A stretch of DNA of 64,000 nucleotides from Longimicrobiales bacterium (GCA_965238005.1 OZ250165.1:2432001-2496000); one strand, 5' to 3'; numbered from the stretch's first letter, positions 36,336-55,403 are shown. Program-made: numbers and translations. The notes: a model not told the origin generated them from the sequence alone.

Positions 36336-36358
36336 TTGACTTTCGGTTTTTATTCGGT
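36336..36358 (+). promoter_or_regulatory. Direct-repeat operator copy 1 (CTTTCGGTTTTTATTCGG) overlapping a TTGACT -35
   Basis: TTCGG at 36342 and 36353; immediately upstream of imuB. Confidence 0.75.
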
Positions 36359-36381
36359 ATCCGTTCAAGGCCTTTTTGTCC

Positions 36382-37731
36382 ATGTCCGAGCCCCGTTCGC
36401 GTGTGTACAGTGGTCCTACCCACCCAGCCGTTCGAGGGTGGGAGACCAGGGGCGCCACCACCACCCAGCGACGAGGAAGCCGCCAAGCACTCTGCGCCTG
36501 GCTGCCCACCTTCGAGCTTCGACTGGAGCTGGTCCGGAGCCCGGAGCTGGACGCTACGTCCGTAGCCCTTCTCTCCCCCGGCGAGAACACCCGGAGAACG
36601 GTCTGGCAGGTCTCCGAGCGGGCCTCCATCGCCGGCGTACGCCCTGGGCAACTCATCTCTCAGGCCGTCGCCCTCTGCCCTTCCCTCACCCTCCTGGAGC
36701 CCGATCCGGCCCACTACGACGCTGCCCAGGAGGAGCTCCTGGAGACCCTGTCGGGCCTGAGCCCCATCGTGGAGCCTGCCGGCCGCGGAAGGGTCTTCGT
36801 GGGAATGGACGGGCTCGGACGGCTCTACGGCTCACCACCGCGCCAGGTAGACAGAGTTCTCGGAGCGCTCCTCACGATCTTCCCCCGTCCACTGGTGGCC
36901 GCCATGAGAATGGGGTGGGCCTCGGGGAAGTTCGGAGCCTGGGTGGCCGCGGCCGGAGCGGGCCCCGGACGACCCGTGATCGTGGAAGGAGAGGAGCTCC
37001 TCTCCTTCCTGGGCCCCTGCCCCGTCTCCGTGCTTCCGGTCGATACGGTCATGGTCGAGCGGCTCGAGCGGCTCGGCATCGACACCCTGGGCGATCTGAT
37101 CCGTCTCCCGACCCCAGCCTTGATCGGTCAGTTCGGATCCGACGGGCAAAGGGCTCGGGCCTGGGCCACGGGCGAGCGGATCGATTCCGTCCAGCCGTAC
37201 CATCGACCTCGACCGATCCGATCTTCACTCGACTTCCACACTCCCGTGGGGCAGGTGGAAACGCTCCACGGGGCACTGGACCGGCTCCTGGAACGAGCGT
37301 TGGCGCGTCCGGAGCGTCAGGGCAGGAGCATACAGGGTGTGGGTCTGGCCGCTCGCCTGGAGGGTGAGGGCTCGTGGGCCCTGAAGACGGTCCTTCGGGA
37401 GCCCACGGCGCATCGCGAGCGAATCGCCTTCGTCCTTCGCGCCCGGATGGCCCTGTCACCTCCCCCTCGGGCCGTGGAAGCCCTGACCGTGGAGTTCTTC
37501 CAGTTCGGCCCTGCCACGTCTCAGAACGACCTCTTCGACCGGGGGGAGTCCAGTGGCAGAGAAGAGTGCGGGCGGGAGCTGTCCGAGGGCACCGTCCCCT
37601 CCGCCCTCAGGGAGGCCGTTCAGGAATTGAAGCTGAAGCTCGGCCACTCACCACTCTATCGCGTCGTAGAGGTGGACCCCTGGTCCCGGATCCCCGAGCG
37701 GAGACATGCGCTGCTGAATTTCGAGCCGTGA
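36382..37731 (+). CDS. imuB: ImuB-like catalytically inactive Y-family polymerase lacking the ImuB-C domain
   Basis: CAWLPTFEL in place of the catalytic DxDxF; no SxDE; HhH LERLGIDTLGDL; clamp-binding-like QNDLF; ends at a RecA-NT-like LKLKLG...SRIPERR motif. Confidence 0.85.
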   Translation: MSEPRSRVYSGPTHPAVRGWETRGATTTQRRGSRQALCAWLPTFELRLELVRSPELDATSVALLSPGENTRRTVWQVSERASIAGVRPGQLISQAVALCPSLTLLEPDPAHYDAAQEELLETLSGLSPIVEPAGRGRVFVGMDGLGRLYGSPPRQVDRVLGALLTIFPRPLVAAMRMGWASGKFGAWVAAAGAGPGRPVIVEGEELLSFLGPCPVSVLPVDTVMVERLERLGIDTLGDLIRLPTPALIGQFGSDGQRARAWATGERIDSVQPYHRPRPIRSSLDFHTPVGQVETLHGALDRLLERALARPERQGRSIQGVGLAARLEGEGSWALKTVLREPTAHRERIAFVLRARMALSPPPRAVEALTVEFFQFGPATSQNDLFDRGESSGREECGRELSEGTVPSALREAVQELKLKLGHSPLYRVVEVDPWSRIPERRHALLNFEP

Positions 37732-37739
37732 TTTAACAT

Positions 37740-38261
37740 TTGATCAAGGACACGGCGATAGAGATGACCGAGATCCCACTCAAGCTCACCATCCTGCTGG
37801 TGGTCGCGGCAGCCGGCTGCTCGGACGGAAGCAGTAGCCAGGGATCGTCGAACCGGACACCGCCAGCGGACCCGTCAACGGACGCATCATCATCTCCGAG
37901 CTCCTGGGTGGAGAGTGCGGGACTTCGTCCCGGATCATCAGCTACGCCCCCGACGAGACCGATCCCCTGGTCCTGGTCGCTTCCGGTTCGAACATCATGT
38001 CACAAGATCGTCTTTGGCCGCGGGGGACCCGAGCAACCGCGGTCCATGTGGGTGATAGACCTCGCCACCAGAGACGAGTCGGAGATTCTTACCGGCGTGC
38101 AGTGGGCCGTTGCCATAAGGCCGGGGGCCTGTATACGTATCATTCTTGAACTTTTATACGTATACGCTAGGCGAGCGCATGGTAATGACCGGACTGGTCA
38201 CGGGCAGCGGGGAATCTCCTCGGCCTCGGCGAGCTGGGCGGCAGTCAGGGAGCCCCGATAG
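37740..38261 (+). pseudogene. Probable degraded lipoprotein/TolB-like remnant
   Basis: Lipobox-like AAGC, low-complexity middle, short KIVF...MWVIDLAT segment; incoherent ORF. Confidence 0.3.
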
Positions 38262-38541
38262 GGGGCCAGACCGGAGCGCCACACACCCTGTGCGTCCTCC
38301 GCCAACGCTGGTGCAACGCTGGTGGGCCGTTTCCTCCACAGGAGGCCCTGAGCGTCGGCTGATTCGGAGGCCTTCCGCCGTGTCGTGGCTACGGATTTTC
38401 GGTCCCGGGTCCTCCGGTCGCGCCCCGTGCCGTCGAACTTCGGTGTGGCGATTCTTCGTCGTCGCAAGTGCCCCGCCGAACGCGTAAATTACGTAATACC
38501 AGCTACATGACAGACGGCCGTATCCGTCGGAAGGCCGGACG

Positions 38542-39114
38542 ATGCCAGGTTCCGATGTAGTCACGGTCGAGTTCGAGTTCACCCCCGAAGACTGGGTCAG
38601 GGCCAACGCCACGCACTCGTGGAACTCGGAGTTGACGAAGAAGGCGCTCAAACAGATGCAGGTGCTTTTCGCCATGATCGTCGGGCTCATGGCCCTGCTC
38701 ATGCTCCTTGGCGGATCGGCAGTGGGTGCCATCGCCATGTTGCTCGCCGGCACGGTCTTGGTGGGTGTGCTCAAGCCTCTCGTCCGCATCTCCCAGCGGC
38801 GCCAGATCAAGAAGGTCGCCGACCTCGGCCTCATCAACGGCATCTTCGGACCGCATCGCGTGGAGCTGCGGGACGAAGGCATCTTGGATTCCACCACCGG
38901 ATACGAATTCCTCGTGAGATGGAGCGCCATCGAGGACATCAAGGAGTCGGACGGCTCCTTCCTCATCTACTCGGGCGCCAACTCCTTCCTGACCATCCCA
39001 TCCTCGGCGTTCCCCGACGCCGAGACGCTGCGAGCGTTCGGCGATCGCTTCTTCGAGCGTCTCAGCCAAACAGAGACGCCGGCGTTGCCCGATGAGGGAG
39101 AGCGCGGGGACTAG
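38542..39114 (+). CDS. YcxB-like membrane protein
   Basis: Two TM helices followed by a WSAIEDIKE...FLIY...IPSSAF C-terminal domain. Confidence 0.7.
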   Translation: MPGSDVVTVEFEFTPEDWVRANATHSWNSELTKKALKQMQVLFAMIVGLMALLMLLGGSAVGAIAMLLAGTVLVGVLKPLVRISQRRQIKKVADLGLINGIFGPHRVELRDEGILDSTTGYEFLVRWSAIEDIKESDGSFLIYSGANSFLTIPSSAFPDAETLRAFGDRFFERLSQTETPALPDEGERGD

Positions 39115-39189
39115 CGGACACCGGCCGTCCCGTCGGTTGGCCCTCCATCAGACGGGGTGACGTCAAGGAGCGGACATCCCATTCCTGAA

Positions 39190-39222
39190 TTGCATCGCCC
39201 ATCCTTTCGGTTTATATTCGGT
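39190..39222 (+). promoter_or_regulatory. Promoter TTGCAT-N17-TATATT overlapped by operator copy 2 (CTTTCGGTTTATATTCGG)
   Basis: -35 at 39190-39195, -10 at 39213-39218; TTCGG at 39206 and 39217. Confidence 0.8.
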
Positions 39223-39252
39223 TTCCGTGGAAACCCCATAGACCGAAATGTG

Positions 39253-39561
39253 ATGAGCCCTCCGACCCCGTCATCCAACGGCGCCAACAACAGCCGGCCC
39301 AGCAGGCTTCAACGGCAAAGGCTTCGCCCGTTGAAGTCCCCCTCCCCCGTCCAGGTCCGGACCGACGCCGACGGGTTGCCCACCGAGCTGCACCGATGTG
39401 GGAAGCGGTTTCGGGTGGCGGCGGTACGCGAGCGCTGGAGGATCGACGATGAGTGGTGGCGGAATCCCATCTCAAGGGAGTACTTCGCCCTGGTTCTGGA
39501 GGACGGGCGCCCCATCATCCTCTTCCGGGACCTCGTCGCCGGGGGATGGTACGGACAGTGA
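39253..39561 (+). CDS. Stand-alone ImuB C-terminal-domain-like protein (DUF6504-like)
   Basis: LRPL..P.PVQV...G.P...RWRIDDEWW...REYF.L.LEDG...LFRD....WY pattern matches the C-terminal domain of full-length ImuB. Confidence 0.75.
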   Translation: MSPPTPSSNGANNSRPSRLQRQRLRPLKSPSPVQVRTDADGLPTELHRCGKRFRVAAVRERWRIDDEWWRNPISREYFALVLEDGRPIILFRDLVAGGWYGQ

Positions 39562-40247
39562 AGATCCTCCGGATCCACCTCGCCCCCCGTAGCAGAAACA
39601 GGGTGCTGGTGCACCTCGAGGACCTGGACCCGCTGGAGATCGCCCTGGACGTCATGGACCGGTCCGGGGTTCACGTGGGCTCCGAGCTCGAGCCCGCGGA
39701 TCTCGCCCACCTGCGGGAAGACGACACGAAATGGCGCGTTCGTCAGGTCGCCCTCCACCTCCTCTCCTCTCGCCCCCGTGGGGAGCAGGAGCTCCGCACC
39801 CGTCTCCGGGCGAAGAGCTTCCCCCCTGCCCTGGTGGAGTGGTGCATCCACCTCCTCAGAGAGCAGGGGCTCCTGGACGATCATGCCTTCGCTTCGGCAT
39901 ACGTGCGAAGCCGCATTCGCCTCCGCCCGCGGGGGCGCTTTCGTCTGAGCCAAGAATTGCGACAGAAGGGGGTGGCTGTCGAAGTCGTCGAGAAAGCGAT
40001 CGAGGACGCCTTCCTCGATGAAGCAACGTCGGAGCACAAGCTGGCCAGGGAGGCCGCTCAGAGGTGGGTGCAGCGCCAGAGCCGGACGGTGGCCAAGGCG
40101 CTCGCGGCGCATGACCGTTCCCCGGAGCGTGAGCGGGGCCGACGACGTCTGCACGCTTTCCTGAACCGCCGGGGCTTCGCACCCGACGCCATTCGCGCCG
40201 CTCTAACGGCCGCGTTGGAGAGGGCCGCCGATCTCTGTGCGCCCTAG
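39558..40247 (+). CDS. recX: Regulatory protein RecX
   Basis: ALHLLSSRPRGEQELRTRL, GLLDDHAFA, QELRQKGV, FLNRRGF; GTG start overlaps the upstream TGA (GTGA). Confidence 0.88.
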   Translation: MKILRIHLAPRSRNRVLVHLEDLDPLEIALDVMDRSGVHVGSELEPADLAHLREDDTKWRVRQVALHLLSSRPRGEQELRTRLRAKSFPPALVEWCIHLLREQGLLDDHAFASAYVRSRIRLRPRGRFRLSQELRQKGVAVEVVEKAIEDAFLDEATSEHKLAREAAQRWVQRQSRTVAKALAAHDRSPERERGRRRLHAFLNRRGFAPDAIRAALTAALERAADLCAP

Positions 40248-40249
40248 TT

Positions 40250-43200
40250 CTAGCTGGCCCGGGCGTCCGAGTCCTCGTCGCGCATCTCCTTCAGCGCGTC
40301 GTGGATTCCCTGGGTCAGGTCTCGCTCCTGGCGTAGCGCAACGAGGAGCCGCTCGGCCTCCTTGGCCTCGTAAGTGAGCTGTCCGGAAGTCACGATGACC
40401 TGGTCCACGACCGCCTTCTGACTGCCCAGTGATTCCAGTCCCGCCCGGATATCCATGAGCAGACCGTCGGCACGGGCGAGACGCCCCTCGGCGTTCTCGA
40501 TCTGCCGTTGCCGCTCGTCGATGCTCGCAAGCACCTCGGTCATCTCCTCCGCCTTGGCCCGCACCACCTCAAGGTTCTCGCTCGCGGTTTGCACCTCGTC
40601 GGTCGCCGCGGAGATGGCCCGCACATCCTCCAGGGTGCGCTCCGCCCGGGCGAAGAGGTCCTGGACCTCTTCGCGAACCTGATCGATGCTCCCCTGCCTT
40701 GCCGCCAGCGTCTCGATGGAGCGGCCGAGCTCCTGCTCGACCTTGTCGAGGTCGGCGAGCTTCTCCTCGAACTGGGTGATGCGCTTCTCCGCGAAGCGCA
40801 GGCTGCCGGCCCGCGCCTCGAGGCGCTCGGCTCGCATGCCGACCTTCTCGGACTGCTCCTCCGCAGCGACCAAGTGCTCGGTAACGGAGCGGAGCTGATC
40901 CTCCAGTGCCTGGAGGTCCGTGGCCGTCTCCTGGCGCAAGGTGGCCACTCGATCGAGATGCTCGGTGGCCTTGTCCAGAGCCTGCTGGCGTTGGGCGATA
41001 TCGGCGGCGACCCGATCCACTCGCTCCGACAGCGACGTGATGTACTCCGAGCGCTCCACTGCCGCGTCCACTCCCTCGCCCAGCTCCGCCATGTGGTCTT
41101 CGGCCTTGCGTACGGCGGCGGTCACGTCTTCGATGACGGCCCGTACCTTGTCGGCCGCCTCGGCCTGCGCGGACACCGCCTCGAAGCGACGATCGGCGTC
41201 GGCGAGGCTGACCAGCAGATTGCTCGTGCGCTCGTCGAGCTGAGTCCCGGTCTCCCTCAGCTCCGACATGCGATTGTCGAGCTCCGTCAGCGACGGCTCG
41301 CGCGCTTCCAGATGTGAGGCGGCCGCCAAGACCCGGTCGGCGTTCTGCCGCATGTGGTCGAGGTTGGCGGTCAGGTCGTCGAGCTGCGTGATCCGCGGGC
41401 GGAGCTCGCGGATGGACTCCTGCGTGGTGGCTAGCCACGCGCCGGTCTCGAGTTGTCCGGCCTGCATCCGCTCGATCTCCGCGCGGGTGGCCCGCAGACG
41501 CTCCATGGCGTTGACGACCTCCTCTCGCGATCCCCTGAGGGTGGTGAGATCACGAATGGCGTCCTGGACCTCGGACTGTCGAGCCTCGATCCGCTCGAGG
41601 CGGTTGGCCGCCTCGACGGCCGACGCCTCAGCTCTCGACATCCCGTCCCGCATCCCGGTGACCAGCTCCACCTGCTCACTGAGTTGATCGAGCTGAGACG
41701 ACAACGACGTCGAGCGAGCAGACAGGTGGTCACCGCTGCGGGTGGCCTCACTGACCCGCTGGCTCGCGTCGTCGAGGGCACGGAAGCGATTCTCGAACTC
41801 CGTCACTCCCGTGCGCAGATCCACGATCCGCTGATCGATGGCCCCCAGGCTGGCCCGCCCGAGCTCGAAGCTCTGCGTGCTGCGCCGTACCTCCTCCCGC
41901 AGCCCGGCCAGCGTCGACCGCAACTCCTCGTCTTCCCTCCGGATATTCGCCTGTCCGGCCCGGAGCTCGGTAAATTGCTCGGTCACCTTGGCGTTCAGGG
42001 CGCGGAGCGCCTCGACGCTCGTGTTGACCTTCTTCACCTCCTTGACCTGCGCCCGGGCTTCCTTGAGCTTCGACTCCAGCTCCCAGTGGAGGTCCGTGAG
42101 GGCCCGTGCCTGTGCCTCCGTTCGATCGATGGCCTCTCGCTGGCGCTCCAGAGCGGCAGTCTTCTGGCTCACGTGATCGGACAGTCCACGCAACGCGTTC
42201 AACTGCCGCTCGGTGCGACCCGCCAGCTCCTCGGCCTTGGTGAGGTCCTGCATCGTGTTCTCGACCGAGGCCACACGACTGGTTGCGTATTCCACGCCCT
42301 GATCCACGGCGTCCATCCTGGTCCGGATCTCTTTGTACCGGGAAAGGAGGGCTTCCTGCGAGCTCCGGGTGTCCGCCTGATCCTCCCGGATGCGAGCGAC
42401 ATCCTGGCTGTAGTCGAGGAACTGGGCTCTCGCCTCTTCCACCTGTGTGCGGAGCTTCGAGAGGGCCCCCTTCGGTCCGGAGAGCTCGGCGATCTCCTGC
42501 CTGGCCACGGACACCGACTGTACCCCCTCGCGGAGATCGGAGACGTTCGAGTCCAGATCCTTGACCTCCTTGGAGGCCGACTGGATCGCGTCGAGGGCCT
42601 TCCGCTGATTCTCGGCCACCGCGTCGGCCTGCTGGGCGATGGCCGCCATCTGTGCCTCAAGCTGGCCAAGATCGAGTGTGCGGCCCTCGATGCGGCTGAG
42701 CTCCTCCTTGAGCTTCCCGAGATCATCCCGAACCGCAGAGAGGTCTCCCTTGGGGCCGAGCAGCTCCGCCATGGCCGTCCTGGCGTCGGCCACGGCGTCC
42801 ACCTGAGCGTGTAGGGAGGTCACCTGGCCCTCGAGCTTGTCGGCCGAGCTCGTGCTCCGCTCCAGCGACCCGGAGAGCTCATTCTGGGATTCGGCGATCT
42901 CTTCGATCCGCCTCTCGACGACGTCGAGCTGAGCGAAGGACTCCCTCAGTCCGGTCCCGCGATCCTGCATCTGCTGGATCTCCTCGCGGATCACGTTCAC
43001 CCTCTTGAGCAGGGTGGCGACGGTACCGGAGGGCCCGAGCAGGTCCGCCATGGCCGTCCTGGCATCGGCCACCGCCTCCACCTGAGCGTGCAGGGTGGTC
43101 ACCTGGCCCTCGAGCTTGTCGGCCGAGCTCGAGCTTCGCTCCAGGGATCCGGCGAGCTCATCCTGAGATGCGGAGACCCCTTTGATCCGCCTCTCGACGA

Positions 43201-44305
43201 CGTCAAGCTGAGCGACGGTCTCCTTCAGTCCGGTCCCGCGATCCTGCATCTCCCGAAGCTCCTCACGAAGAACGCTCACCTGCGTGAGCAGGGTGGCGAC
43301 GGTACCGGAGGGCCCGAGCAGGTCCGCCATGGCCGTCCTGGCATCGGCCACGGCGTCCACCTGCGAATGTAGGGAGGTCACCTGGCCCTCGAGCTTGTCG
43401 GCCGAGCTCGAGCTTCGCTCCAGGGATCCGGCGAGCTCATCCTGAGATGCGGAGACCCCTTTGATCCGCCTCTCGACGACGTCAAGCTGAGCGACGGTCT
43501 CCTTCAGTCCGGTCCCGCGATCCTGCATCTCCCGAAGCTCCTCACGAAGAACGCTCACCTGCGTGAGCAGGGTGGCGACGGTACCGGAGGGGCCGAGCAG
43601 CTCCGCCATGGCCGTCCTGGCGTCGGCCACGGCGTCCACCTGCGAATGTAGGGAGGTCACCTGGCCCTCGAGCTTGTCGGCCGAGCTCGTGCTCCGTTCC
43701 AGCGACCCGGCGAGCTCATTCTGGGATTCGGCGATCTCTTCGATCCGCCTCTCGACGATGTCGAGCTGAGCGAAGGACTCCTTCAGTCCGGTCCCGCGAT
43801 CCTGCATCTGCTGAAGCTCCTCGCGGAGCACGTTCACCCTCTTGAGCAGTGTGGCGACCGTACCGTAGGGCCCGGCCATCTCCGTGATGTCGCCCGTGGC
43901 CGTGCCGACCTCGTCTACCATGGACCGGATGTCCCGGACCTGCATGTTCAGATCGCTGACCCTCCGAGACGCGTCGTCCAACGTGGTGGTGGCTTTGCTC
44001 TGCGACTCCGTGAGCTCCTTCGCCCGCTGCTCGACCGAGTCGACCTGGGCCGAGATGTCGGTGAACGAGTCGACCCGCGTCTGGAGCTCGGTGACCTGCT
44101 GGCTCATGGCCTCCGTGCTGGCCTGGACGGCGGCCAATGGGCCAGAGGCGTCGTGGAGGATCTGTTGCGCCTCCTCCGACCGCTTCACGAGGTCCCGGAG
44201 CGCTTTCCGGTCCCTCTTGGCCTGGGCGAATATCTTTTGGAGCTCTTCGGGGAGCTCTGTGATCTCACCGCTGCCACCGAAGAACGACTTGATCCAGGAA
44301 GCCAT
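40250..44305 (-). CDS. Large coiled-coil protein (~1351 aa) with 93-aa tandem repeats
   Basis: GAGAGG RBS before ATG 44305; heptad-rich, with no TM helix, signal peptide or Walker motif; N-terminus MASWIKSFFGG. Confidence 0.85.
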   Translation of the reverse strand: MASWIKSFFGGSGEITELPEELQKIFAQAKRDRKALRDLVKRSEEAQQILHDASGPLAAVQASTEAMSQQVTELQTRVDSFTDISAQVDSVEQRAKELTESQSKATTTLDDASRRVSDLNMQVRDIRSMVDEVGTATGDITEMAGPYGTVATLLKRVNVLREELQQMQDRGTGLKESFAQLDIVERRIEEIAESQNELAGSLERSTSSADKLEGQVTSLHSQVDAVADARTAMAELLGPSGTVATLLTQVSVLREELREMQDRGTGLKETVAQLDVVERRIKGVSASQDELAGSLERSSSSADKLEGQVTSLHSQVDAVADARTAMADLLGPSGTVATLLTQVSVLREELREMQDRGTGLKETVAQLDVVERRIKGVSASQDELAGSLERSSSSADKLEGQVTTLHAQVEAVADARTAMADLLGPSGTVATLLKRVNVIREEIQQMQDRGTGLRESFAQLDVVERRIEEIAESQNELSGSLERSTSSADKLEGQVTSLHAQVDAVADARTAMAELLGPKGDLSAVRDDLGKLKEELSRIEGRTLDLGQLEAQMAAIAQQADAVAENQRKALDAIQSASKEVKDLDSNVSDLREGVQSVSVARQEIAELSGPKGALSKLRTQVEEARAQFLDYSQDVARIREDQADTRSSQEALLSRYKEIRTRMDAVDQGVEYATSRVASVENTMQDLTKAEELAGRTERQLNALRGLSDHVSQKTAALERQREAIDRTEAQARALTDLHWELESKLKEARAQVKEVKKVNTSVEALRALNAKVTEQFTELRAGQANIRREDEELRSTLAGLREEVRRSTQSFELGRASLGAIDQRIVDLRTGVTEFENRFRALDDASQRVSEATRSGDHLSARSTSLSSQLDQLSEQVELVTGMRDGMSRAEASAVEAANRLERIEARQSEVQDAIRDLTTLRGSREEVVNAMERLRATRAEIERMQAGQLETGAWLATTQESIRELRPRITQLDDLTANLDHMRQNADRVLAAASHLEAREPSLTELDNRMSELRETGTQLDERTSNLLVSLADADRRFEAVSAQAEAADKVRAVIEDVTAAVRKAEDHMAELGEGVDAAVERSEYITSLSERVDRVAADIAQRQQALDKATEHLDRVATLRQETATDLQALEDQLRSVTEHLVAAEEQSEKVGMRAERLEARAGSLRFAEKRITQFEEKLADLDKVEQELGRSIETLAARQGSIDQVREEVQDLFARAERTLEDVRAISAATDEVQTASENLEVVRAKAEEMTEVLASIDERQRQIENAEGRLARADGLLMDIRAGLESLGSQKAVVDQVIVTSGQLTYEAKEAERLLVALRQERDLTQGIHDALKEMRDEDSDARAS
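42475..43890. repeat. 279-bp intragenic tandem repeat (4 near-identical units + 1 diverged)
   Basis: ATGGCCGTCCTGGC at 42771, 43050, 43329 and 43608 (279-bp spacing). Confidence 0.95.
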
Positions 44306-44544
44306 GATTCCTCTCGATCGGGGTTTCCGAGAAAATGTCACCCGGTCCCGGAAAATACCATGTGGCCTCCCTTCCCGGCGAGCGTGCTGGAGTGAAGGCT
44401 AGCATCCACTCCAATTGCTGGACTCCATGGCTGTGGCGCAAGTGGATCAGGTCTTGGCGCATCTTTTTCAACCCGATGCGGTAATAGGCCTGGGCATTTC
44501 CTCTGGCGACACGGGCGTGATCGGGGGGACCAGGAGGGGAGACA

Positions 44545-45153: not shown

Positions 45154-45188
45154 GAGCCGCCCCACCCTATTCCCGGACGGGCTCCTAG
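45150..45188. repeat. 39-bp minimal family B element
   Basis: CTAGGAGCC...CCGGACGGGCTCCTAG; the left TAG is the stop codon of the VTT gene. Confidence 0.55.
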
Positions 45189-45247
45189 TCTAGGGAGGGA
45201 TCGGCCAGACAGAGCCCACATAGCGGGGGCCCGGTAACCGGAGTCGT

Positions 45248-46105: not shown

Positions 46106-46107
46106 CG

Positions 46108-46162: not shown

Positions 46163-48037
46163 CTACCAGGCTATGCCGTAGTCGTCACCGTGGTGGCTAG
46201 AGCCTCCCCAGAAGGTCCCGTGCTCCCAGTCGAAGAAGATGGCGTTGATGGGTCCGGAAGTCCTCTCCGAGAACGTCAGGCTGTACCCCATGCGCCTCAG
46301 GTCGGCCTGCACCCAGGGCGGCGTGGCCTGCTGAACCAGCATGCGACCGGGGCTACTCTCGTGGTCGCCGAACGAGCCGCGCATCTGGAAGCTGTTGATG
46401 TTGGCCGCTTCGGCCGCCTGCTGCACGTTCATGTCGAACTCGACGATGTTCAGGAAGAACTGGAGCAGGTTCTGGTCCTGGCCGTCTCCACCCTGGACCG
46501 CGAACGACATGAAGGGCTTGCCGTCCTTCACGGCCAGGCTGGGCGTGAGCGTGGCTCGGGGCCTCTTGCCGGGCTCCACGACGTTGTAGGGGTTGTCCTC
46601 CTCGTTGACGATGAAGCTCTGCATGCGCTGGCTCAGGCCTACCCCGGTCTGGCCGGCGACCACGGCCGGGATCCACCCGCCGCTGGGCGTGATCGAGACC
46701 ACCCAGCCCTCCTCGTCGGCGGCCTGGATCGACGTGGTGCCCAGGTAGAAGTCGTCCTCGAAGTCCGCCATGGCCTGGGATCCGGCCGCCTCGGTCACGG
46801 TGCGGCCCTTCTCGTTCCACTGCTCCAGGTACCGCAAGAACGGGTTGGTCCCGCCCTGGAAGGGATAGGGGTCGCCGGGGCCCAGGTTCGGGTCGTTCTT
46901 CTCCCAGTCGACCTGGCCGGCCCTCTGCTTGGCATAGTCCTTGGAGAGCAGTCCCTCGAGGGGTTCCTCCGGCGGGTAGTAGGGATCGCCATAGTAGAAG
47001 TCGCGATCCGCGAAGGCCAGGTTCATGGTCTGGTACAGGGCGTGGATGTAGCGGCTACTGTTATAGCCCATGGCCTTGAGGTCGAAGTTCTCGAGGATGT
47101 TCAACGCCTGCAGCAGGACGGGTCCCTGCACCCAGGTCGTCAGCTTGTAGACGTCGATGCCCTTGTAGCTCGTCTTCACCGGCTCCTCGAGGTAAACCTG
47201 CCAGTTGGCCAGATCCTCCATGGTGATGAGCCCCCCCTGTTCCTGGGTGCCCCTCACGAGCTCCTGGGCGATATCCCCCTTGTAGAAGCGATCGTACGCG
47301 GCGTAGATGGCCTCCCTGCGGCCCTTGCCCTGGGCCAGCGCATCGCGCTCGGCCTCGACCAGTTTTTCGAGCGTGCGCTTGAGGTCGGGCTGGCGGAAGA
47401 TCTCACCCTCCCTGGGCGCCGGGTTCTCGGCGTCGTCGGGGTGCGTCAGGTAGACCGCACGGGAGTAGGGCCACTCGCGGATGCGGTCGATCTGGCCGTG
47501 GATGCCTCGCACGGCGCCGGCCTCGATGGCGTAGCCGTCGGCCATCTGGATGGCCGGCTCGAGCACCTCGGCCAGGCTCAGCGTGCCGAACTCGGCCAGC
47601 ATGGTCATCAGCCCGCCCGGCGTGCCCGGAGTCACCGCCGCCAAGGGCCCGTACTGGGGCGGAAAGTCCATCCCCTTCTCACGGAAGAAGTCCACCGTGG
47701 CGCCCGTCGGCGCGACGCCCAGCGCGTTGACGCCGATGACCTTGCCGGTGTTCGGGTTGTATATGAGTGCCTGGGTCTCTCCGCCCCAGCTCAGAACGTC
47801 CCACATGGTAGCGGTGGCGGCGAGCATGGCGCTGGCGGCGTCCACCGCGTTTCCGCCCTTCTGGAAGATCATGGCGCCGGCGGTGGCCCCGAGGGGCTTG
47901 CCGGTGATGGCCACCCAGTGCGTGCCGTGCAGGACCGGCTTCTGCGTCCGCTGCGCCTCCAGGACCCAAGGGCTCAGCGCGAAGATCAGCATGAGTGCGA
48001 GGCTCAGCCGAAGCAGGACCCTCGTTCGTGCCCTCAT
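46163..48037 (-). CDS. ggt: Gamma-glutamyltransferase family protein, secreted
   Basis: Signal peptide, GGNAVDAA, GTTS nucleophile site, PGKRPRATL, QGGDGQ. Confidence 0.9.
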   Translation of the reverse strand: MRARTRVLLRLSLALMLIFALSPWVLEAQRTQKPVLHGTHWVAITGKPLGATAGAMIFQKGGNAVDAASAMLAATATMWDVLSWGGETQALIYNPNTGKVIGVNALGVAPTGATVDFFREKGMDFPPQYGPLAAVTPGTPGGLMTMLAEFGTLSLAEVLEPAIQMADGYAIEAGAVRGIHGQIDRIREWPYSRAVYLTHPDDAENPAPREGEIFRQPDLKRTLEKLVEAERDALAQGKGRREAIYAAYDRFYKGDIAQELVRGTQEQGGLITMEDLANWQVYLEEPVKTSYKGIDVYKLTTWVQGPVLLQALNILENFDLKAMGYNSSRYIHALYQTMNLAFADRDFYYGDPYYPPEEPLEGLLSKDYAKQRAGQVDWEKNDPNLGPGDPYPFQGGTNPFLRYLEQWNEKGRTVTEAAGSQAMADFEDDFYLGTTSIQAADEEGWVVSITPSGGWIPAVVAGQTGVGLSQRMQSFIVNEEDNPYNVVEPGKRPRATLTPSLAVKDGKPFMSFAVQGGDGQDQNLLQFFLNIVEFDMNVQQAAEAANINSFQMRGSFGDHESSPGRMLVQQATPPWVQADLRRMGYSLTFSERTSGPINAIFFDWEHGTFWGGSSHHGDDYGIAW

Positions 48038-48145
48038 CGTTCCTCCTAGGCTTCGTACGATTGACGACCGTGGTTGCGTAGCGATCAAGGTACTTGGAGA
48101 GGTTCGACCACGCACCAGATGCGGTTTCCCGGGTGCTCGCCCCGC

Positions 48146-49354
48146 TCAGAAGAAGTGGGTCAACGACAGGTATAGCACGGTGGGCGTGGGCCCGAACTCG
48201 GAGCCGATGCTAGTGTCCAGCGCGAACGCGTCGTCCCCCACGCCGATGAAAAAGCCCCCACGCAGGCTCGAGTTGGAGCCGAAGCCCCACGTTCCGCCGC
48301 CCGACAGGAGGACGCTGCCATCCGAAAGGCTGGTGAGGGCCAGAAGGTCCGCAGCCCACAGCGGATGGATCTGGTACGAGGCCTGGGTGGCCAGGGCGTC
48401 GCGTGCCAGCAACTGAAGCTCGCCCCGTTGGAACGCAGAGGAGAGAGTCGTCTGGAAGAGCTCGTCGGAATCCGCGGCACCGAAGCCGTCCCGCTGATAC
48501 TCGACGATCAAGTACAGATCCCGACGGTACACAGCCACCCGCCGGTCGACCCCCACCGTGCCCCTGAGCACGGCTCCGACCCCCCCGTCCCGGACCGAGA
48601 CCTCGGTGCGAACGGCCCACCCGGCCAACTCCCCCACGGCGCTCACCGCCCCCGCCGCGTCGTCGAACAGCACGCCACCCCATGCCGCGACATCCCATCC
48701 CCGCCAGTTGGTCTTGCCCCGCACGAGGGCCGTCAGCTGGTCTCCACCCGGCGACGACGTGGGGCGTACCACCAGCTCCACCTCGCTGAAGGCTCCCGGA
48801 TAGGCACGAACCCGGACGCCGTCGATGCCGACCCGATACTCACGGAACGGATCGGCCGGGTCGAACGGCGCGAAGGGATCGGCAGGTGTGAGGATCAGGG
48901 TGCTTGCCCACGAAACGACCTGTCTCCCCACAGAGAGCTCAACCGACTCACCCACGGGGAGAGTGAGGGCCAGACGATCCACACGATGTCGCCACAAGAC
49001 CTGGTCGCTCGCCTCCGCCGTCCAGTCGAGCTCCAGCCAGTTGACCCCGGCGCTCGGGACCACAGCAACCGCCCCGGTGCCGAGCACATCTTCACCGCTG
49101 ACCTGGAGGGTGTGCCCGTACGCGAAGTCCAGGCCGAAGGGCCCCACGGAGGGAGCCCACATGACACGGAAGCGTTGGAAATCGGTGAGTCCCGAATCGC
49201 TTACCGGGCTTTCGCCCGAGCGGCTGAAGAGGTTCAGGTAGTAGGCGGAGAGGTCGGGCACTTGAGCGTCGAGCACGGCCGCACCGAACGCCAGGTACAG
49301 GACCGATACGATCAGTCCCCGTCGCAGTCCCCGCCGGGGCTCTGCTCCCCTCAC
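48146..49354 (-). CDS. Putative outer-membrane beta-barrel partner of the ABC exporter
   Basis: Signal peptide, GRQVVSW and GIDGVR strands, terminal Phe. Confidence 0.65.
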   Translation of the reverse strand: MRGAEPRRGLRRGLIVSVLYLAFGAAVLDAQVPDLSAYYLNLFSRSGESPVSDSGLTDFQRFRVMWAPSVGPFGLDFAYGHTLQVSGEDVLGTGAVAVVPSAGVNWLELDWTAEASDQVLWRHRVDRLALTLPVGESVELSVGRQVVSWASTLILTPADPFAPFDPADPFREYRVGIDGVRVRAYPGAFSEVELVVRPTSSPGGDQLTALVRGKTNWRGWDVAAWGGVLFDDAAGAVSAVGELAGWAVRTEVSVRDGGVGAVLRGTVGVDRRVAVYRRDLYLIVEYQRDGFGAADSDELFQTTLSSAFQRGELQLLARDALATQASYQIHPLWAADLLALTSLSDGSVLLSGGGTWGFGSNSSLRGGFFIGVGDDAFALDTSIGSEFGPTPTVLYLSLTHFF

Positions 49355-49369
49355 CTGTCAAGCGATCCT

Positions 49370-50083
49370 TTACTGCCTCTCGTCCGATGTGACCTGCCCG
49401 TCGACGAGGCGCACGCGGCGGCGCGCCCGCTCCATCACGCGGGGGTCGTGGGTCGAGAAGAGGAACGTGGTGCGGTGCTCCCGGTTCAGCCGCTCCATGA
49501 CGTCCAGAAGCGCGTCGCTGGTATGGGAGTCGAGATTGGCCGTGGGCTCGTCCGCGAGGACGAGTGTGGGCTCGCCTACCACGGCCCGGGCGACCGCTAC
49601 CCGCTGTTGCTGGCCACCGGAGAGCTTTCCGGGCTTTCGGTCCTCCAAGCCCTCGAGGCCGATCTCCTGGAAGAGCTCCCCCACTCGCCGGTGGCGCTCC
49701 TCGGTGGGCACTCCCCTCAGCAGGAGCGAGAACTCCGCATTCTCCAGAGCCGACAGCACGGGGAGCAGGTTGAAGGCCTGGAAGACGAAGCCGATGCTCT
49801 CGAGCCGGAGCCGGGCCAGCTCCTTGTCGGAGAACTCGGTGATCTCCTGCTCGCCTACCCAGATCCGCCCTCGGGTGGGGCGGGTCAGCCCTCCGAGCAG
49901 GTTGAGAAGGGTCGTCTTCCCGGACCCGGAAGGGCCGGCCATGGCCATGAAGTCTCCTTCGTGGATCTCCAGGGTGACACCACGGACCGCTTCCACTTCC
50001 TCGGGCTCCTGGGGATAGACCTTCCAGAGATCCTCGGTGCGCACGGCTACCTCGGTGGCCAAGGACGGGTTCTCGTTCGTCAT
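49370..50083 (-). CDS. ABC transporter ATP-binding protein (LolD/MacB type)
   Basis: GPSGSGKT, LSGGQQQRV, LADEPTANLD, STHD. Confidence 0.95.
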   Translation of the reverse strand: MTNENPSLATEVAVRTEDLWKVYPQEPEEVEAVRGVTLEIHEGDFMAMAGPSGSGKTTLLNLLGGLTRPTRGRIWVGEQEITEFSDKELARLRLESIGFVFQAFNLLPVLSALENAEFSLLLRGVPTEERHRRVGELFQEIGLEGLEDRKPGKLSGGQQQRVAVARAVVGEPTLVLADEPTANLDSHTSDALLDVMERLNREHRTTFLFSTHDPRVMERARRRVRLVDGQVTSDERQ

Positions 50084-51339
50084 TCGAATTTCAGGGCCTC
50101 CGCCACGTCGATCCTGGTGGCCTGGATGGCGGGATAGATGGATGCGGTGATTCCCACTACGGCGATGGACACGACGCTCTGGAGGACCTGAACGGCCCGA
50201 AACTCGGGAACGATGACCGGATCCATGACGATGCCCGAGAAGGTGAAGTCGTTGTCCATGAGGAAGGAGAAGTCCAAACCGTCGCGGAAGAAGATCCACG
50301 TCAGCGCGAAGCCGGCGATCATGCCCACCACGCCGGCCAGCGCCGTGAGGAGAACTCCCTCGAGGAAGATGACGACTCCCGTCTCTTTCGGCGTGAGGCC
50401 GAGAGCCTGGAGCACGCCGAACTCACGCCTCCGATAGAGGACCGACATGAGGATGGTGTTGAGCACGGCAAGGGCGACGATGGCGAACAGAATCGAGTGG
50501 AAGACGAAGTCGCCGTAGTCGTCGATGCGCACGGCGCTATGGAGCTGCGGGTACGCTTCGGTCCAGCTCACGACCCGGATCCCGTCACCGTCCAGGCCCT
50601 CCTCCAGAGCTTGGATGGCATCGGGCACGACCCGGCTCCCCGGAAGGATGGCCCCCACCGTGGTGACGGCCCCCTCGGCGTCCAGCCAGGCACGGGCCGT
50701 GGTGATGGGAATGTGAACCAGGCCCTCGTCCACCTCCGGGAGACCGCTCCTGAAAACGCCCACCACACGGACGAGCTGCCCTTCGATCTCACCGTCCGTC
50801 GACTGGGCCGTTAGGACGAAGCGCGAGCCGAGCCTGAGGCCGAGGCGCTCGGCCAACCCGGTGCCCACGTAAGCGGCCAGGCGGTCATCGACCTCGAGGT
50901 ATCGTCCCTCCACGACCTGCTCCGCCACGTGCGAGAAGTCGGACTCCGCCGCCGGATCCACGCCCTCGATCCCCACGGGCACGGCGGACGTCGTGGAGCT
51001 GGCGAGGCCGTTCGTCGAGAGCCGGATCGTGGTGGCCAGGGGGGCCATGGTAGCCGTCAGGTCGCCGAGAGCCGCGAGCGCGGCCTCGGCCTCGAGCCCC
51101 TCGAGTCGGTCGTCGAGGCTTCCGCTCTCCAAGTGGTCCGGAGCCTGAAGAAGAACGTGCCCGGCGCCCATGCGCACGCCGGCGTTGATCCAGTCCTCGT
51201 GTCCACCGTCGGCCAGTGATCGCGAGAACATGAGGAGTGCCAGGCCCAGGGCCATGGCCGAGGCCGTGAGGAGGCTCCTCCGGGTCTCCCGCCAAACACC
51301 TCGCCCGGCGAGGCGCATCAGGATCAGCGTGCGCCTCAT
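50080..51339 (-). CDS. FtsX/LolE-type ABC permease
   Basis: One TM + periplasmic domain + three TMs; RRREFGVLQALG. Confidence 0.9.
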   Translation of the reverse strand: MRRTLILMRLAGRGVWRETRRSLLTASAMALGLALLMFSRSLADGGHEDWINAGVRMGAGHVLLQAPDHLESGSLDDRLEGLEAEAALAALGDLTATMAPLATTIRLSTNGLASSTTSAVPVGIEGVDPAAESDFSHVAEQVVEGRYLEVDDRLAAYVGTGLAERLGLRLGSRFVLTAQSTDGEIEGQLVRVVGVFRSGLPEVDEGLVHIPITTARAWLDAEGAVTTVGAILPGSRVVPDAIQALEEGLDGDGIRVVSWTEAYPQLHSAVRIDDYGDFVFHSILFAIVALAVLNTILMSVLYRRREFGVLQALGLTPKETGVVIFLEGVLLTALAGVVGMIAGFALTWIFFRDGLDFSFLMDNDFTFSGIVMDPVIVPEFRAVQVLQSVVSIAVVGITASIYPAIQATRIDVAEALKFE

Positions 51340-52604
51340 GTGTCCGCCAGTGCGTCGGCCGGTGGGATCTTCACCGCCCGATACGCAGGGTAGAACGCCG
51401 CCAGGATCGAGGTCACCAGGAGGCCGACGGCACTGTACAGGGGACCTTCAAGGGTATACTCCGCCCTGAGAACGGGTCGGACGACGGCCCCCGCCATCGT
51501 GAAGTCTCCGAACATGCGCGAGAGGTCCGGCGGATAGTTGTGAAGCCAATACAGCACGGGCAGTGAGATGGCGACCCCGACGGCGAGGGCCAGAGTGCCG
51601 AGGATGAGCCCCTCGTAGACCACGGTTCGCGCCACGCTCATGGGCTGTGTGCCCAAGGCCCGTACCACCGCGAACTCGCGACGCCGCTCGTACGTACTGA
51701 GGAGCATGGTGTTGGCCACCCCGAACATGGCCATCACGAAGACGATCCCCACGATGATGGCGTTCACGGCCTTGGCGAGATTGGCGTACTCCGCCAACTC
51801 CGCCCGGAAGATCGTCCAGGGCCGAGGGGCGATCGGATACCCAAGGTCCTGGGCTGACAGGGCGGACGCCAGGGAATCCCCCACGGCCACGGCGCTCCAG
51901 GGATCGTCCAGTGAAGCGGCGATCTCGTGTACGCGATTGGGCGGCATCGCCATCAGATCCTGAAGAGCTCCGATGGGAAGCACCGCCAGGGACCCGTCCA
52001 GCGCCGGCATCCCGGTGTCGAAGACTCCGCTGATCCTATACAGATCGTTGCCCAGGGAGCCGTCGGTGGCCGGCACCACGAGGACGACCTCATCGCCGGG
52101 CCCGACATCGAGGATCGCGGCCATCTCGCTCCCGACCAGGATCTCCCGCTCTCCGGCTCTGGGCGGGCGCCCCTCCAGCGGCATAGCGAGAAGACGGGTG
52201 ACCCGGGGTTCCCGCTCGGGGTCCACACCCACCAGGACTCCGGCCACCGTCTCCCGCCCGGAGCTCACGAGGCCGCCCCCGTAGACGCGAGGCGCCGCGG
52301 CCGTCACTCCAGGAAGCGCCATCGTGGCGCGCACCAGCCCCTCGACGTCGATCCCGTCTCGACCACCGAGGGTCGAGTACATGCTTCGCTCGGGGTAGTA
52401 GTCTGGGGCGTGCACCTGGAGCTGCCCCGAGACCAGATTGGTCCCCGTCTCGATCATCTCGGCAATCATGCCGTGCCAGGTTCCGATCATGGTCACGGAC
52501 GCGAGATACCCGAAGGCGAGGGCCGAGGCGGTGATGAGCGTGCGCTTCCAATTGCGCCAGAGGTTCCGCCACGCCAGGCGCCACCACACCCACCGATCTC
52601 CCAT
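51336..52604 (-). CDS. FtsX/LolE-type ABC permease
   Basis: LAWRNLWRN, ERRREFAVVRALG. Confidence 0.9.
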   Translation of the reverse strand: MGDRWVWWRLAWRNLWRNWKRTLITASALAFGYLASVTMIGTWHGMIAEMIETGTNLVSGQLQVHAPDYYPERSMYSTLGGRDGIDVEGLVRATMALPGVTAAAPRVYGGGLVSSGRETVAGVLVGVDPEREPRVTRLLAMPLEGRPPRAGEREILVGSEMAAILDVGPGDEVVLVVPATDGSLGNDLYRISGVFDTGMPALDGSLAVLPIGALQDLMAMPPNRVHEIAASLDDPWSAVAVGDSLASALSAQDLGYPIAPRPWTIFRAELAEYANLAKAVNAIIVGIVFVMAMFGVANTMLLSTYERRREFAVVRALGTQPMSVARTVVYEGLILGTLALAVGVAISLPVLYWLHNYPPDLSRMFGDFTMAGAVVRPVLRAEYTLEGPLYSAVGLLVTSILAAFYPAYRAVKIPPADALADT

Positions 52605-52790
52605 CTAGTGTCCCGTCCCAGAAGTTCGCTGGCATTCGGGCGCCGATGCATCCATCCTAGCGGCGTTGCTCCTCCTCGGACCACGGCCTTCGGCCGCGGT
52701 GCCCGCGCTGCTATTCCTCGTCGTCGCGCCTTGCCAGGACGGCGCCTCGGCACCCTCGGTTCGGACCGAACTTCTGGGACGGGACACCAG
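52605..52790. mobile_element. MITE-like element family A, 186-bp copy
   Basis: 24-bp TIR CTAGTGTCCCGTCCCAGAAGTTCG with one mismatch; fills the whole intergenic gap. Confidence 0.85.
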
Positions 52791-53591
52791 CTACCTTTGG
52801 CGACGGAGGTTGCGTAGCGAGAAGAACTCCTCGTCCACGCCGATGTCGAACTCCAGCTCATGGTACTGGATAACCGTGACCTCGCCGGGATCGTCCGCCG
52901 GCTCCACGGTCATGACGGTGGGAACCAACCGGCCGCCCATCACCAGGTGACCGCTGAAGGTCATGGTGCGGATCAGCTCATCGGACTCGTCGTAATATCG
53001 AGCCCAGGTGGGCATCAGGTCGTCCCGTCGCACCTGGTAGCGAATCTTGCCCCAGACCACGGGAGCCTCGGGGCGAGGGAGCAGGAGAAACTCCCAGACG
53101 TCCATGCCGTCCCTGGCCCCCTCGAACTCGATCTCGATCTCGTAGTCGTCGGCGAGCGTGCTCTCCTTCACGAGGTCATCGTTGGTGAAGTGCGAGCCCA
53201 TCCACGAGCCCATCATCATGGACGACGGCACCTTGATGGTGCGGTCCACCCTGGGCAGGTAGTTCCAGACCTCCTGCCCCGCCTTCAGGGTGGCTATGCC
53301 GGCCTCCTTGGCCGGTGTCTCCACCCGGACGAGCGCGTATTCGGTCCCCAGGGACCAGGCGCGGAGCGTGAGGGAGCGCTCCCAGTGCTCGGTCCGGATG
53401 TCCATGGTAAAGCGAGCCTCGCTGGACTCGCCTCTGAGCAGGCGGTCCACCTGATCGATGATCTCCCGGGCCGACTGAGCCCGGGCCGCCTGAGCCTGAG
53501 CCGCCTGAACTCGGGCCGGAAAAGGTGTCAGAACGCAAAGAAAAGCGGCCAACAGTGTCGCGACTGCGGGCCAGGGCCGAAAGGAAGTCAT
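52791..53591 (-). CDS. LolA-like outer membrane lipoprotein-sorting protein
   Basis: Signal peptide, WNYLP, WMGSHFTNDD, FSLRNL; first gene of the ABC cluster. Confidence 0.85.
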   Translation of the reverse strand: MTSFRPWPAVATLLAAFLCVLTPFPARVQAAQAQAARAQSAREIIDQVDRLLRGESSEARFTMDIRTEHWERSLTLRAWSLGTEYALVRVETPAKEAGIATLKAGQEVWNYLPRVDRTIKVPSSMMMGSWMGSHFTNDDLVKESTLADDYEIEIEFEGARDGMDVWEFLLLPRPEAPVVWGKIRYQVRRDDLMPTWARYYDESDELIRTMTFSGHLVMGGRLVPTVMTVEPADDPGEVTVIQYHELEFDIGVDEEFFSLRNLRRQR

Positions 53592-54007
53592 GGTCCGTCA
53601 GGGGGTGGGCCCTCGAACGTGTAGCACCACGCCTCACCCTCGAGGACCGTCTCCCCATCCTTTCGCCGCACCGTGACGGCCAAGTTGGTCACCGGCTTCG
53701 TCTCGTGGACGCTCAGGACCACCGCCTCGGCGGTTATGGTATCACCGATGAAGACGGGGGCGGTGAACTTCCACTCCTGGCTCATGAACACAGTGCCGGG
53801 ACCCGGCATGTCCATGGCGACGAGGGCATGCAACAGGCCCGTCGTCAGGCCCCCCTGCACCACCAACTTGCCGAACGGCGTGGCGGCCACGAACTCCTCG
53901 TCGAAGTGGAGGGGGTTGTGGTCCCCGCTCAGAGCGGCGAACTGGGCTACGTGTGTGGATGTGAGCGTGATACTGCGAGAAGCTCGGTCGCCAACGCGCA
54001 CGTTCAT
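53588..54007 (-). CDS. MaoC family dehydratase
   Basis: FAALSGDHNPLH, PGPG, APVFIGDT. Confidence 0.92.
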   Translation of the reverse strand: MNVRVGDRASRSITLTSTHVAQFAALSGDHNPLHFDEEFVAATPFGKLVVQGGLTTGLLHALVAMDMPGPGTVFMSQEWKFTAPVFIGDTITAEAVVLSVHETKPVTNLAVTVRRKDGETVLEGEAWCYTFEGPPPDGP

Positions 54008-54183
54008 GGGCTTGGTCCGGTCGCGGTTTCCAGGTGCCTCGAAAGCTAGTCGAGTGCCCCGTTCCAGGGCAGTTAGCCACCAATATCGGATAAGGCACGC
54101 TCTTGAACTCGGCCATGAATGGGGGCATCCTGGAGACACAACCGCCTGACCTCCCTTGGATCGAACCGAGTGGAATAACCGTC

Positions 54184-55275
54184 ATGAGGCTCAAGACCAG
54201 CCCGGCCATCGAGGAAGCCCTGATCGCGATCGGCTTGCTAGGCGCCGCGATCTACCTGTATTACGTCATAGCGTTCTGGGGCATGGCCGATCGCTTTCAA
54301 CCAGGCGTGTTCAGAGACTACGTCACGGGGGCGGGGATGCAGGTGGAGATGTTCGTGGTGTGGGTCGGCTTCGGGGTCGCCGTCGCGGCCACCAACGCGT
54401 GGCTGGAATCCCCGCGCCTTCGTGAGCGTCCCTTCGGGCAGATCATTCTGATCAGAAGTGGGGTTTATCTGGCGGCGTTCTTTGTCGTCAGCGGTGCCAT
54501 TCACGTGATCCTGGGACTCTTCGTCCTCTCGGAGGCGGACCACATGGCGTTGATGGCCACTCTCAGCGGTCGGTTCGTCGTGTCGGCCTCGAGCTCGCTC
54601 GTTCTGAGCGTCGTCGGAGTCAACTTCCTCCTCGAGGTCCGCCGCAAGGTTGGTCCCGGCAACCTGATCGCTCTTCTCACGGGGCGTTATCACCGACCGA
54701 AAGATGAGGAGAGGTTGTTCCTGTTCCTGGATCTCAAGGACTCGACCGCGATCGCGGAGTCGTTGGGGCACAATGCGTACAGCCAGTTCCTGCGGTCCTG
54801 CTTTCAGGATCTCACGGCATTTGTGCTCCGGTACGGAGCCCAGATCTATCAGTACGTGGGAGACGAGGTGGTCCTCACGTGGGCGAGCACTAAGCCGCAC
54901 TCGAAAGAGAGCTGCCTCCAGACGTTCTTCGCCTTCCAAAACGAGCTCGAGCGGAAGAGCCACTGGTACCTCTCCAAGTTCGGCCTCGCACCGGAGTTCC
55001 GGGCTGGGGTGGATATGGGGACCGTCACTGTTGCAGAGGTCGGAGACGTAAAGCGGGAGATCGCCTACCACGGCGACCCCCTCAACACGGCCGCCCGGCT
55101 TCTGGAGCTCTGCAAGCAGTTCGGTCGCAGCATTCTGATCACCGGAGAGGTCGAAAAGGCGATATCGCGATCTCCGGACTTTCTCACGGAATGGCAGGGG
55201 GAACTCACTCTCAGGGGGAAGTCGGAGGACGTCGCCGTCTACGGAGTCTCCCTGCAGGTGGCGCCGAGCGCGTAG
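54184..55275 (+). CDS. Membrane-anchored class III adenylate/guanylate cyclase
   Basis: Four TM helices, FLDLKDST, YVGDE, GDPLNTAARL, LRGK. Confidence 0.9.
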   Translation: MRLKTSPAIEEALIAIGLLGAAIYLYYVIAFWGMADRFQPGVFRDYVTGAGMQVEMFVVWVGFGVAVAATNAWLESPRLRERPFGQIILIRSGVYLAAFFVVSGAIHVILGLFVLSEADHMALMATLSGRFVVSASSSLVLSVVGVNFLLEVRRKVGPGNLIALLTGRYHRPKDEERLFLFLDLKDSTAIAESLGHNAYSQFLRSCFQDLTAFVLRYGAQIYQYVGDEVVLTWASTKPHSKESCLQTFFAFQNELERKSHWYLSKFGLAPEFRAGVDMGTVTVAEVGDVKREIAYHGDPLNTAARLLELCKQFGRSILITGEVEKAISRSPDFLTEWQGELTLRGKSEDVAVYGVSLQVAPSA

Positions 55276-55342
55276 CAGGGATCGTCCCGACGGGCGCGCC
55301 GTGGGAGCCCTCGGTCAGCCCACCTCGCGCCTCACCTAATCG

Positions 55343-55403
55343 TTGCACAACAGCTACTTTCGGTTTACATGCGGTTCCTTGCCCCAAACAAAAACCGAAA
55401 GTC
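55343..55403 (+). promoter_or_regulatory. dnaE2 promoter (TTGCAC -35) with operator copies 3 (+) and 4 (-)
   Basis: CTTTCGGTTTACATGCGG at 55357-55374; minus strand GACTTTCGGTTTTTGTTTGG at 55403-55384. Confidence 0.75.

Follow-up and report, generated by a model that had tools for sequence, protein, structure and literature searches.

A TTCGG-N6-TTCGG direct repeat as the probable LexA operator of Gemmatimonadota, present at an ImuA-less mutasome dispersed over 22 kb

We analysed a stretch of 64,000 nucleotides from a Longimicrobiales bacterium (GCA_965238005.1 OZ250165.1:2432001-2496000; referred to here as the window), in which an imuB-like gene, an imuB-C/recX gene pair and dnaE2, together making up a mutasome without ImuA, are preceded by copies of one direct repeat, TTCGG-N6-TTCGG. 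This repeat has a period of 11 base pairs (bp) and is, judged by sequence comparison, very probably the operator of a cleavable LexA protein (LexA1) of the Gemmatimonadota. The original prediction, made from the window alone, had proposed a new SOS box based on four copies, all of which have the sequence quoted there and lie at the positions given in Table 1.

The imuB-like gene, the imuB-C/recX pair and dnaE2 represent three transcription units spread across 22 kb, and each of them has one or more boxes. The dnaE2 gene has two, the inverted one ending three bases ahead of the GTG start codon. Both dnaE2 boxes (55357-55401) are convergent and thereby constitute an inverted repeat in the leader (CTTTCGGTTT and AAACCGAAAG, 25 bases apart), which, if transcribed, could be present as an RNA hairpin. 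When one mismatch is allowed, TTCGG-N6-TTCGG is found 12 times in the window with 6.34 matches expected, a number reached by two of 100 shuffles; this loose pattern is enriched only weakly, about two-fold. The longer form shared by the boxes, TTTCGGT-N5-TNCGGT, has three matches in the complete genome (4.84 Mb), each located at the promoter of the imuB-like gene, imuB-C/recX or dnaE2.

The genome scanned (labelled G000) comprises 4,839,169 bases with 64.8% G+C. For the scan we used a weight matrix of 21 positions, generated from 108 distinct sites upstream of lexA that were taken from relatives only and were collected with a regular expression demanding TTCG in both halves. At the positions not forced by this expression, the fifth base of the half-site is G in 98% and 96% of the sites, respectively. 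The base ahead of TTC is unconserved in the first half-site (G in 24%) and weakly conserved in the second (G in 51%). The frequency of the motif in the genome was compared with background, as had been proposed: 26 matches reach at least 18 bits, compared with 4 and 5 in two mononucleotide shuffles, and 83 reach at least 14 bits, compared with 34 and 41. Intergenic regions, which according to crude gene calls make up 21% of the genome, contain 21 of the 26 stronger matches. Eleven of these 26 are located outside a dispersed repeat that is described below. They comprise the two lexA boxes and those of imuB-C/recX, a PA0069-family radical-SAM gene, the imuB-like gene, two DUF5131 paralogues and mraZ, in addition to two in unassigned context and one that is intragenic. 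The two best scoring sites of the whole genome are the lexA boxes (Table 1).

As had been stated, the regulator gene is located outside the window. The genome encodes two LexA-like proteins, LexA1 and LexA2, which are 27% identical. LexA1 scores 205 bits with the TIGR00498 LexA equivalog model (cut-off 111), can be aligned over its full length with solved LexA structures (3k2z residues 1-201) and retains the GESM serine motif; a VAAG cleavage site and a lysine pair (KK) can be read in its translation. In the alignment of LexA2 with LexA1, GEGF replaces GESM, and both the lysine and the Ala-Gly site are missing. Most genomes of the order encode LexA2, orthologue-level matches being absent from several with the query used here. 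In 30 LexA2 promoters, neither a box of at least 11 bits nor, by eye, a common motif was seen.

A box ahead of lexA was part of the original prediction, and two tandem boxes, TTCGGGCAACGTTCGGG and TTCGGGTCCTATTCGGG, were found upstream of lexA1. To the 80 best related lexA loci, with protein identities from 66 to 97%, belong sequences titled Gemmatimonadota, Longimicrobiales or Gemmatimonadales and a few titled 'uncultured bacterium'; two of them were too short upstream, leaving 78 usable loci. Sites scoring at least 14 bits lie within 200 bp upstream of lexA in 77 of the 78, and 72 of them contain two or more. The remainder of the same loci contains three such sites in 485,568 scanned positions, and this flank rate is the informative figure at lexA, since the upstream sites had also served to train the matrix. 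A recurrent layout can be read by eye in these promoters: TTGCGT, box 1 filling a 17-bp spacer, TATCCT and box 2. The lexA promoter of locus L082, from a Longimicrobium sp., also has the two boxes.

Orthologous promoters of the mutasome genes and of recA were expected to carry the box as well, and boxes were found there; the following counts come from relatives, which are non-independent samples, and describe conservation without being a statistical test. Close orthologues of the imuB-like gene occur in four of 60 other genomes of the order (59-71% identity), and each of the four is preceded by a box of 17.4-23.5 bits. Altogether, 18 Y-family loci out of 30 returned were examined; among the 14 distant ones, four have boxes of 22-27 bits and ten have none. 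The four close orthologues of dnaE2 (67-70% identity; five loci examined of 30) are found in the same four genomes, and each has a box of 21.8-23.4 bits at most 65 bp from the start, one of them inverted. For imuB-C/recX, the three nearest loci (L205, L206 and L210) have the box at -244 to -249, the same distance as here. A recA box is present in this genome and, with at least 14 bits, in 13 of 30 relatives, where five of the 13 sites are inverted; a further seven relatives have a site of 10-14 bits.

From this distribution we infer binding by LexA1, repression and induction by damage. A LexA1 dimer would occupy the two half-sites, which are expected on the same face of the DNA because 11 bp correspond to one helical turn. 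Lying over or beside the core promoter, the operator would block RNA polymerase at lexA, recA, the imuB-like gene, imuB-C/recX, dnaE2 and a small number of other genes. Once DNA is damaged, self-cleavage of LexA1, triggered by RecA filaments, would lead to joint derepression, which would coordinate an ImuA-less mutasome that is split over 22 kb into a Y-family ImuB-like protein, a standalone ImuB-C, DnaE2 and RecX. The positions of the boxes fit a repressor rather than a promoter element, since they fill or flank the presumed -35/-10 spacer, lie past the -10 of lexA and in the dnaE2 leader, and occur in both orientations. By eye, the imuB-like box is flanked by TTGACT (36334-36339) and TATCCG, giving a TTGACT-16-TATCCG frame; the frame around the first lexA box, TTGCGT-17-TATCCT, is conserved, and the second lexA box is located downstream of the -10-like hexamer. 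LexA1 appears to be the matching protein because no sites are stronger or more conserved than those of lexA1 itself, whereas LexA2 is boxless and lacks the cleavage residues.

Several observations weigh against LexA1 as the regulator of these genes. The forward copies had been predicted to overlap the spacer or -10 of sigma-70-like promoters; a strict sigma-70 consensus scan found no promoter at the three window sites, so that the overlap of operator and promoter is a reading of weaker hexamers by eye. Enrichment had also been expected ahead of uvrA, ssb and ruvA. No site above 10.2 bits was detected at uvrA, a second uvrA-like gene, two ssb genes, ruvA, a dinB-like gene, lexA2 or dnaE1, and uvrA, ssb, ruvA and dinB are common SOS members elsewhere. 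The box is missing from 14 of the 18 recX loci examined (of 22) and from 10 of the 30 recA loci, two of the latter from unpublished genomes (G002 and G030). The motif is not exclusive to damage genes, since 27 of the 83 sites of at least 14 bits are located in the dispersed repeat, which has no evident link to DNA damage; its occurrence solely ahead of DNA-damage genes, as originally claimed, holds within the window and does not extend to the genome. The conservation counts overstate the statistical weight because relatives are not independent samples. Finally, with a second LexA-like protein encoded in the genome, it is by inference that the box is assigned to LexA1.

This second protein leads to the question of whether the boxes are bound by another damage-responsive regulator, either LexA2 or an unrelated repressor or activator. 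The actinobacterial activator PafBC has its site just upstream of the -10, and a comparable geometry, in which an activator replaces the -35, is seen where the box abuts a TAnnnT-like hexamer (lexA box 1, the imuB-like gene and the dispersed repeat). A PafBC-like activator is nevertheless less compatible than a repressor with the second lexA box, located past the -10, and with the inverted boxes elsewhere. LexA2 was rejected as the binding protein: its own promoters are boxless, it cannot sense RecA by self-cleavage because cleavage site, serine and lysine are missing, and genome G025 has boxes at the imuB-like gene and dnaE2, yet the LexA2 query retrieves there only a match at the level of LexA1 (E value 7.5e-14). 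The location of the strongest and most conserved sites at lexA1 is moreover a classic sign of LexA autoregulation. Taken together, binding by another regulator is considered unlikely.

In the copies at lexA, at the imuB-like gene and in the repeat, the motif keeps a fixed position relative to a TATCCT-like hexamer, and no canonical sigma-70 promoter was found at the window sites. Both could also indicate that the motif is part of the core promoter, such as a site recognised by an alternative sigma factor. We consider this very improbable: the motif is found in either orientation with respect to the gene that follows, its distance from the start codon varies from -23 to about -250, lexA has two copies, one on each side of the -10-like hexamer, and a -35/-10 pair would require a wider spacing than the 11 bp of the identical half-sites. 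It is also hardly to be expected that the copies in the window match by chance or are pieces of the dispersed repeat, without a regulatory role at the mutasome genes. The imuB-like box does share 14 identical bases with the repeat (TTTATTCGGTATCC), about a third of the strong sites (27/83) belong to the repeat, and the loose pattern is only about two-fold enriched in the window. Yet the box is kept in the promoters of imuB-like, dnaE2 and recX orthologues despite diverged flanks, also in G025, which gave no repeat match when searched; the box-bearing part of the repeat was found only in G000 and G093 among the 41 family genomes searched, and BLAST with the repeat returned no copy inside the window.

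Table 1. Boxes, genes and repeat copies discussed in the text. Window positions are counted from the first base of the window; genome positions are marked as such.
Feature	Position	Strand	Sequence	Score (bits)	Remarks
LexA-type box, imuB-like gene	36340-36357; 21-bp form 36340..36360	+	CTTTCGGTTTTTATTCGG; 21-bp form CTTTCGGTTTTTATTCGGTAT	21.2	rank 8th
LexA-type box, imuB-C/recX pair	39204-39221; 21-bp form 39204..39224	+	CTTTCGGTTTATATTCGG; 21-bp form CTTTCGGTTTATATTCGGTTT	24.6	rank 4th
LexA-type box, dnaE2	55357-55374; 21-bp form 55357..55377	+	CTTTCGGTTTACATGCGG; 21-bp form CTTTCGGTTTACATGCGGTTC	15.3	second half-site degenerate
Inverted second box, dnaE2 leader	55384-55401; 21-bp form 55381..55401	-	reverse complement CTTTCGGTTTTTGTTTGG; 21-bp form CTTTCGGTTTTTGTTTGGGGC	15.1	
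lexA box 2				28.7	rank 1st
lexA box 1				26.5	rank 2nd
PA0069-family radical-SAM gene box	genome 1087238			21.6	
DUF5131 paralogue boxes (two)	genome 4469932, 2764366			20.2 and 19.5	
mraZ box	genome 2643455			18.2	91 bp upstream
recA box				17.3	
gyrA box	genome 4542001			16.6	11 bp upstream
imuB-like Y-family polymerase homologue	36382..37731	+			449 amino acids; Pfam IMS 47.9 bits
Open reading frame without family match	37740-38261				173 amino acids
Standalone ImuB-C-like open reading frame	39253..39561	+			102 amino acids; conservation and weak similarity
recX	39546..40247	+			233 amino acids; Pfam RecX_HTH1, RecX_HTH2; NCBIfam RecX models
Open reading frame downstream of recX	40250-44341	-			1363 amino acids; coiled-coil-type Pfam matches only
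dnaE2-type error-prone DNA polymerase	55404..58802	+			1132 amino acids; Pfam PHP, DNA_pol3_alpha, finger, HHH_6
lexA1	genome, start at 2,582,226				202 amino acids; about 86 kb past the window end; TIGR00498
lexA2	genome 1551105-1551758 (L003 1489-2142)				LexA model score just below the cut-off
Dispersed repeat, example copies	genome 2166053-2166270, 1677824-1678036, 1356762-1356973 (loci L084-L093)				outside the window

The names originally given to the genes downstream of the boxes were borne out, with weak similarity in the case of ImuB-C. The imuB-like gene encodes a Y-family (IMS) protein whose matches to DNA polymerase IV models are below threshold. DnaE2 has the full PolIII-alpha domain set and scores 936.5 bits with NCBIfam NF004225 'error-prone DNA polymerase', just below the cut-off of 939. 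The open reading frame (ORF) ahead of recX has weak similarities to DUF6504 (E value 0.021) and, with residues 62-85, to residues 482-506 at the C-terminal end of a canonical ImuB of 530 amino acids (E value 0.016). This ORF is kept in loci L205-L208 and L210 and adjoins the imuB-like gene directly on the 3' side in four close relatives (L095-L098). The label imuB-C/recX appears reasonable because the ORF is conserved, adjoins the imuB-like gene in relatives and fits the ImuA-less variants of Timinskas and Venclovas. The last 16 bases of the ORF are shared with the start of recX, pointing to translational coupling of the two. ImuA was not found in this genome, where the RecA family matches recA alone; weak ImuA-like matches do turn up next to imuB and dnaE2 elsewhere in the order.

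The interval from the imuB-like gene to imuB-C (window 37740-39114) contains a 173-amino-acid ORF and a YcxB-like gene; for the ORF neither a family match nor, in 11 related loci searched, a homologue was found. In G000 and G093 the unassigned ORF and/or the YcxB-like gene part the imuB-like gene from the imuB-C/recX pair, which has its own box. This looks like an insertion that split an imuB-like/imuB-C operon, because in the four close relatives the two genes adjoin each other. The recX gene adjoins this mutasome in relatives too (L205, L206 and L210) and is located beside dnaE2 in L177. Directly downstream of recX, a large ORF is encoded on the opposite strand (Table 1).

Among the further boxes, that of mraZ, with which the cell-division cluster begins, and that of gyrA may represent SOS links to cell division and DNA topology. 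The PA0069-family radical-SAM protein and the DUF5131 proteins show weak matches to the NCBIfam 'radical SAM mobile pair' proteins B and A. A match of 15.4 bits in a cassette 316 kb away is located inside the HExxH-coding part of an ImmA-like ORF and was read as coincidence.

The most unusual element of the findings is the dispersed repeat of about 220 bp, of which BLAST identified 49 full or partial copies, 29 of them covering the box region. Of the genomic sites, 15 of the 26 with at least 18 bits lie in it, as do the 27 of 83 mentioned above for the lower threshold; 27 copies thus carry a box of 14 bits or more, and these boxes range from 14 to 25 bits. In thirteen long copies, the opposite strand holds the 5' end of a Ser/Thr-kinase gene; these genes are paralogues (Pkinase, PD40). 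The box is located about 90-125 bp upstream of the kinase start and is followed by a -10-like TATCCT directed away from the kinase; in several copies the end of a short hydrophobic ORF comes next. An Rfam scan of ten repeat copies yielded no match at E values up to 1, and RNAalifold, applied in 27 copies to the 110 bases that follow the box, found no consensus structure. It is conceivable, and at present rather doubtful, that a lineage-specific repeat has multiplied a LexA operator, placing it beside Ser/Thr-kinase paralogues and at other loci. If LexA1 does bind the repeat boxes, the kinase family or divergent small transcripts would possibly come under SOS control; the array might instead be a decoy that buffers the level of free LexA. 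Neither arrangement was met in the literature searched.

A direct repeat is an established form of LexA box. The alphaproteobacterial type, GTTC-N7-GTTC, is reportedly found in Acidobacterium capsulatum as well. LexA proteins acting on direct repeats have been described for Alphaproteobacteria (GTTC-N7-GTTC; PMC8565304, PMC3323433) and for Balneolaeota (motif TTACACATATTTTWTACATA; PMC7739468), and splB-type radical-SAM genes, imuA-imuB-dnaE2 and topoisomerase genes are among the reported SOS members (PMC8565304). Like the alphaproteobacterial one, the box described here is a direct repeat whose half-sites share a TTC core and follow each other with an 11-bp period, and it is present at lexA, recA and imuB/dnaE2-type genes. 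It differs in the GG that follows TTC in 96-98% of the sites and in the poorly conserved leading G (24% and 51%), the TTCG itself having been forced by the collection of sites. With the Balneolaeota box it has in common that a LexA direct repeat was recognised by comparative genomics in a little-studied phylum, at lexA, recA, translesion polymerase and radical-SAM genes. The half-sites of the two are unrelated, and the Balneolaeota motif has been confirmed by electrophoretic mobility shift assay, whereas that of the Gemmatimonadota is predicted from sequence. In palindromic SOS boxes, such as CTGT-N8-ACAG of E. coli and GAAC-N4-GTTC of Gram-positive bacteria (PMC3323433), the targets likewise include recA and translesion polymerases, and LexA is autoregulated, as we presume for LexA1; the Gemmatimonadota box has no dyad symmetry, another half-site and another spacing. 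The original prediction had called the motif an 11-bp-period variant that matches no known SOS box. The motif falls within the direct-repeat type and is better called a putative new variant within this class of LexA boxes.

The gene set can be compared in the same way. Compared with the imuA-imuB-dnaE2 cassette, ImuA is missing here and the ImuB-C-like part, weakly similar to its counterpart, is a separate ORF. The ImuA-less variants described by Timinskas and Venclovas (PMC6511836) share with it a Y-family protein, a standalone ImuB-C and DnaE2; here, these genes are distributed over three units across 22 kb with boxes of their own, and ImuB-C appears to be translationally coupled to recX. 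A term search of that Y-family survey (PMC6511836) gave no mention of recX, so that an association of RecX with ImuA-less mutasomes may not have been described before.

A LexA motif or a DNA-damage response of Gemmatimonadota was not found described in the literature searched, which did not include subscription journals. Members of this phylum are abundant in soils and sediments. With a defined LexA box, the SOS regulon would become predictable in hundreds of Gemmatimonadota genomes and metagenome bins. The box would also add a further independent case of a LexA protein that acts on a direct repeat, which bears on how the specificity of LexA changes. The ImuA-less, RecX-coupled mutasome, finally, would be an example of scattered genes that stay co-regulated.

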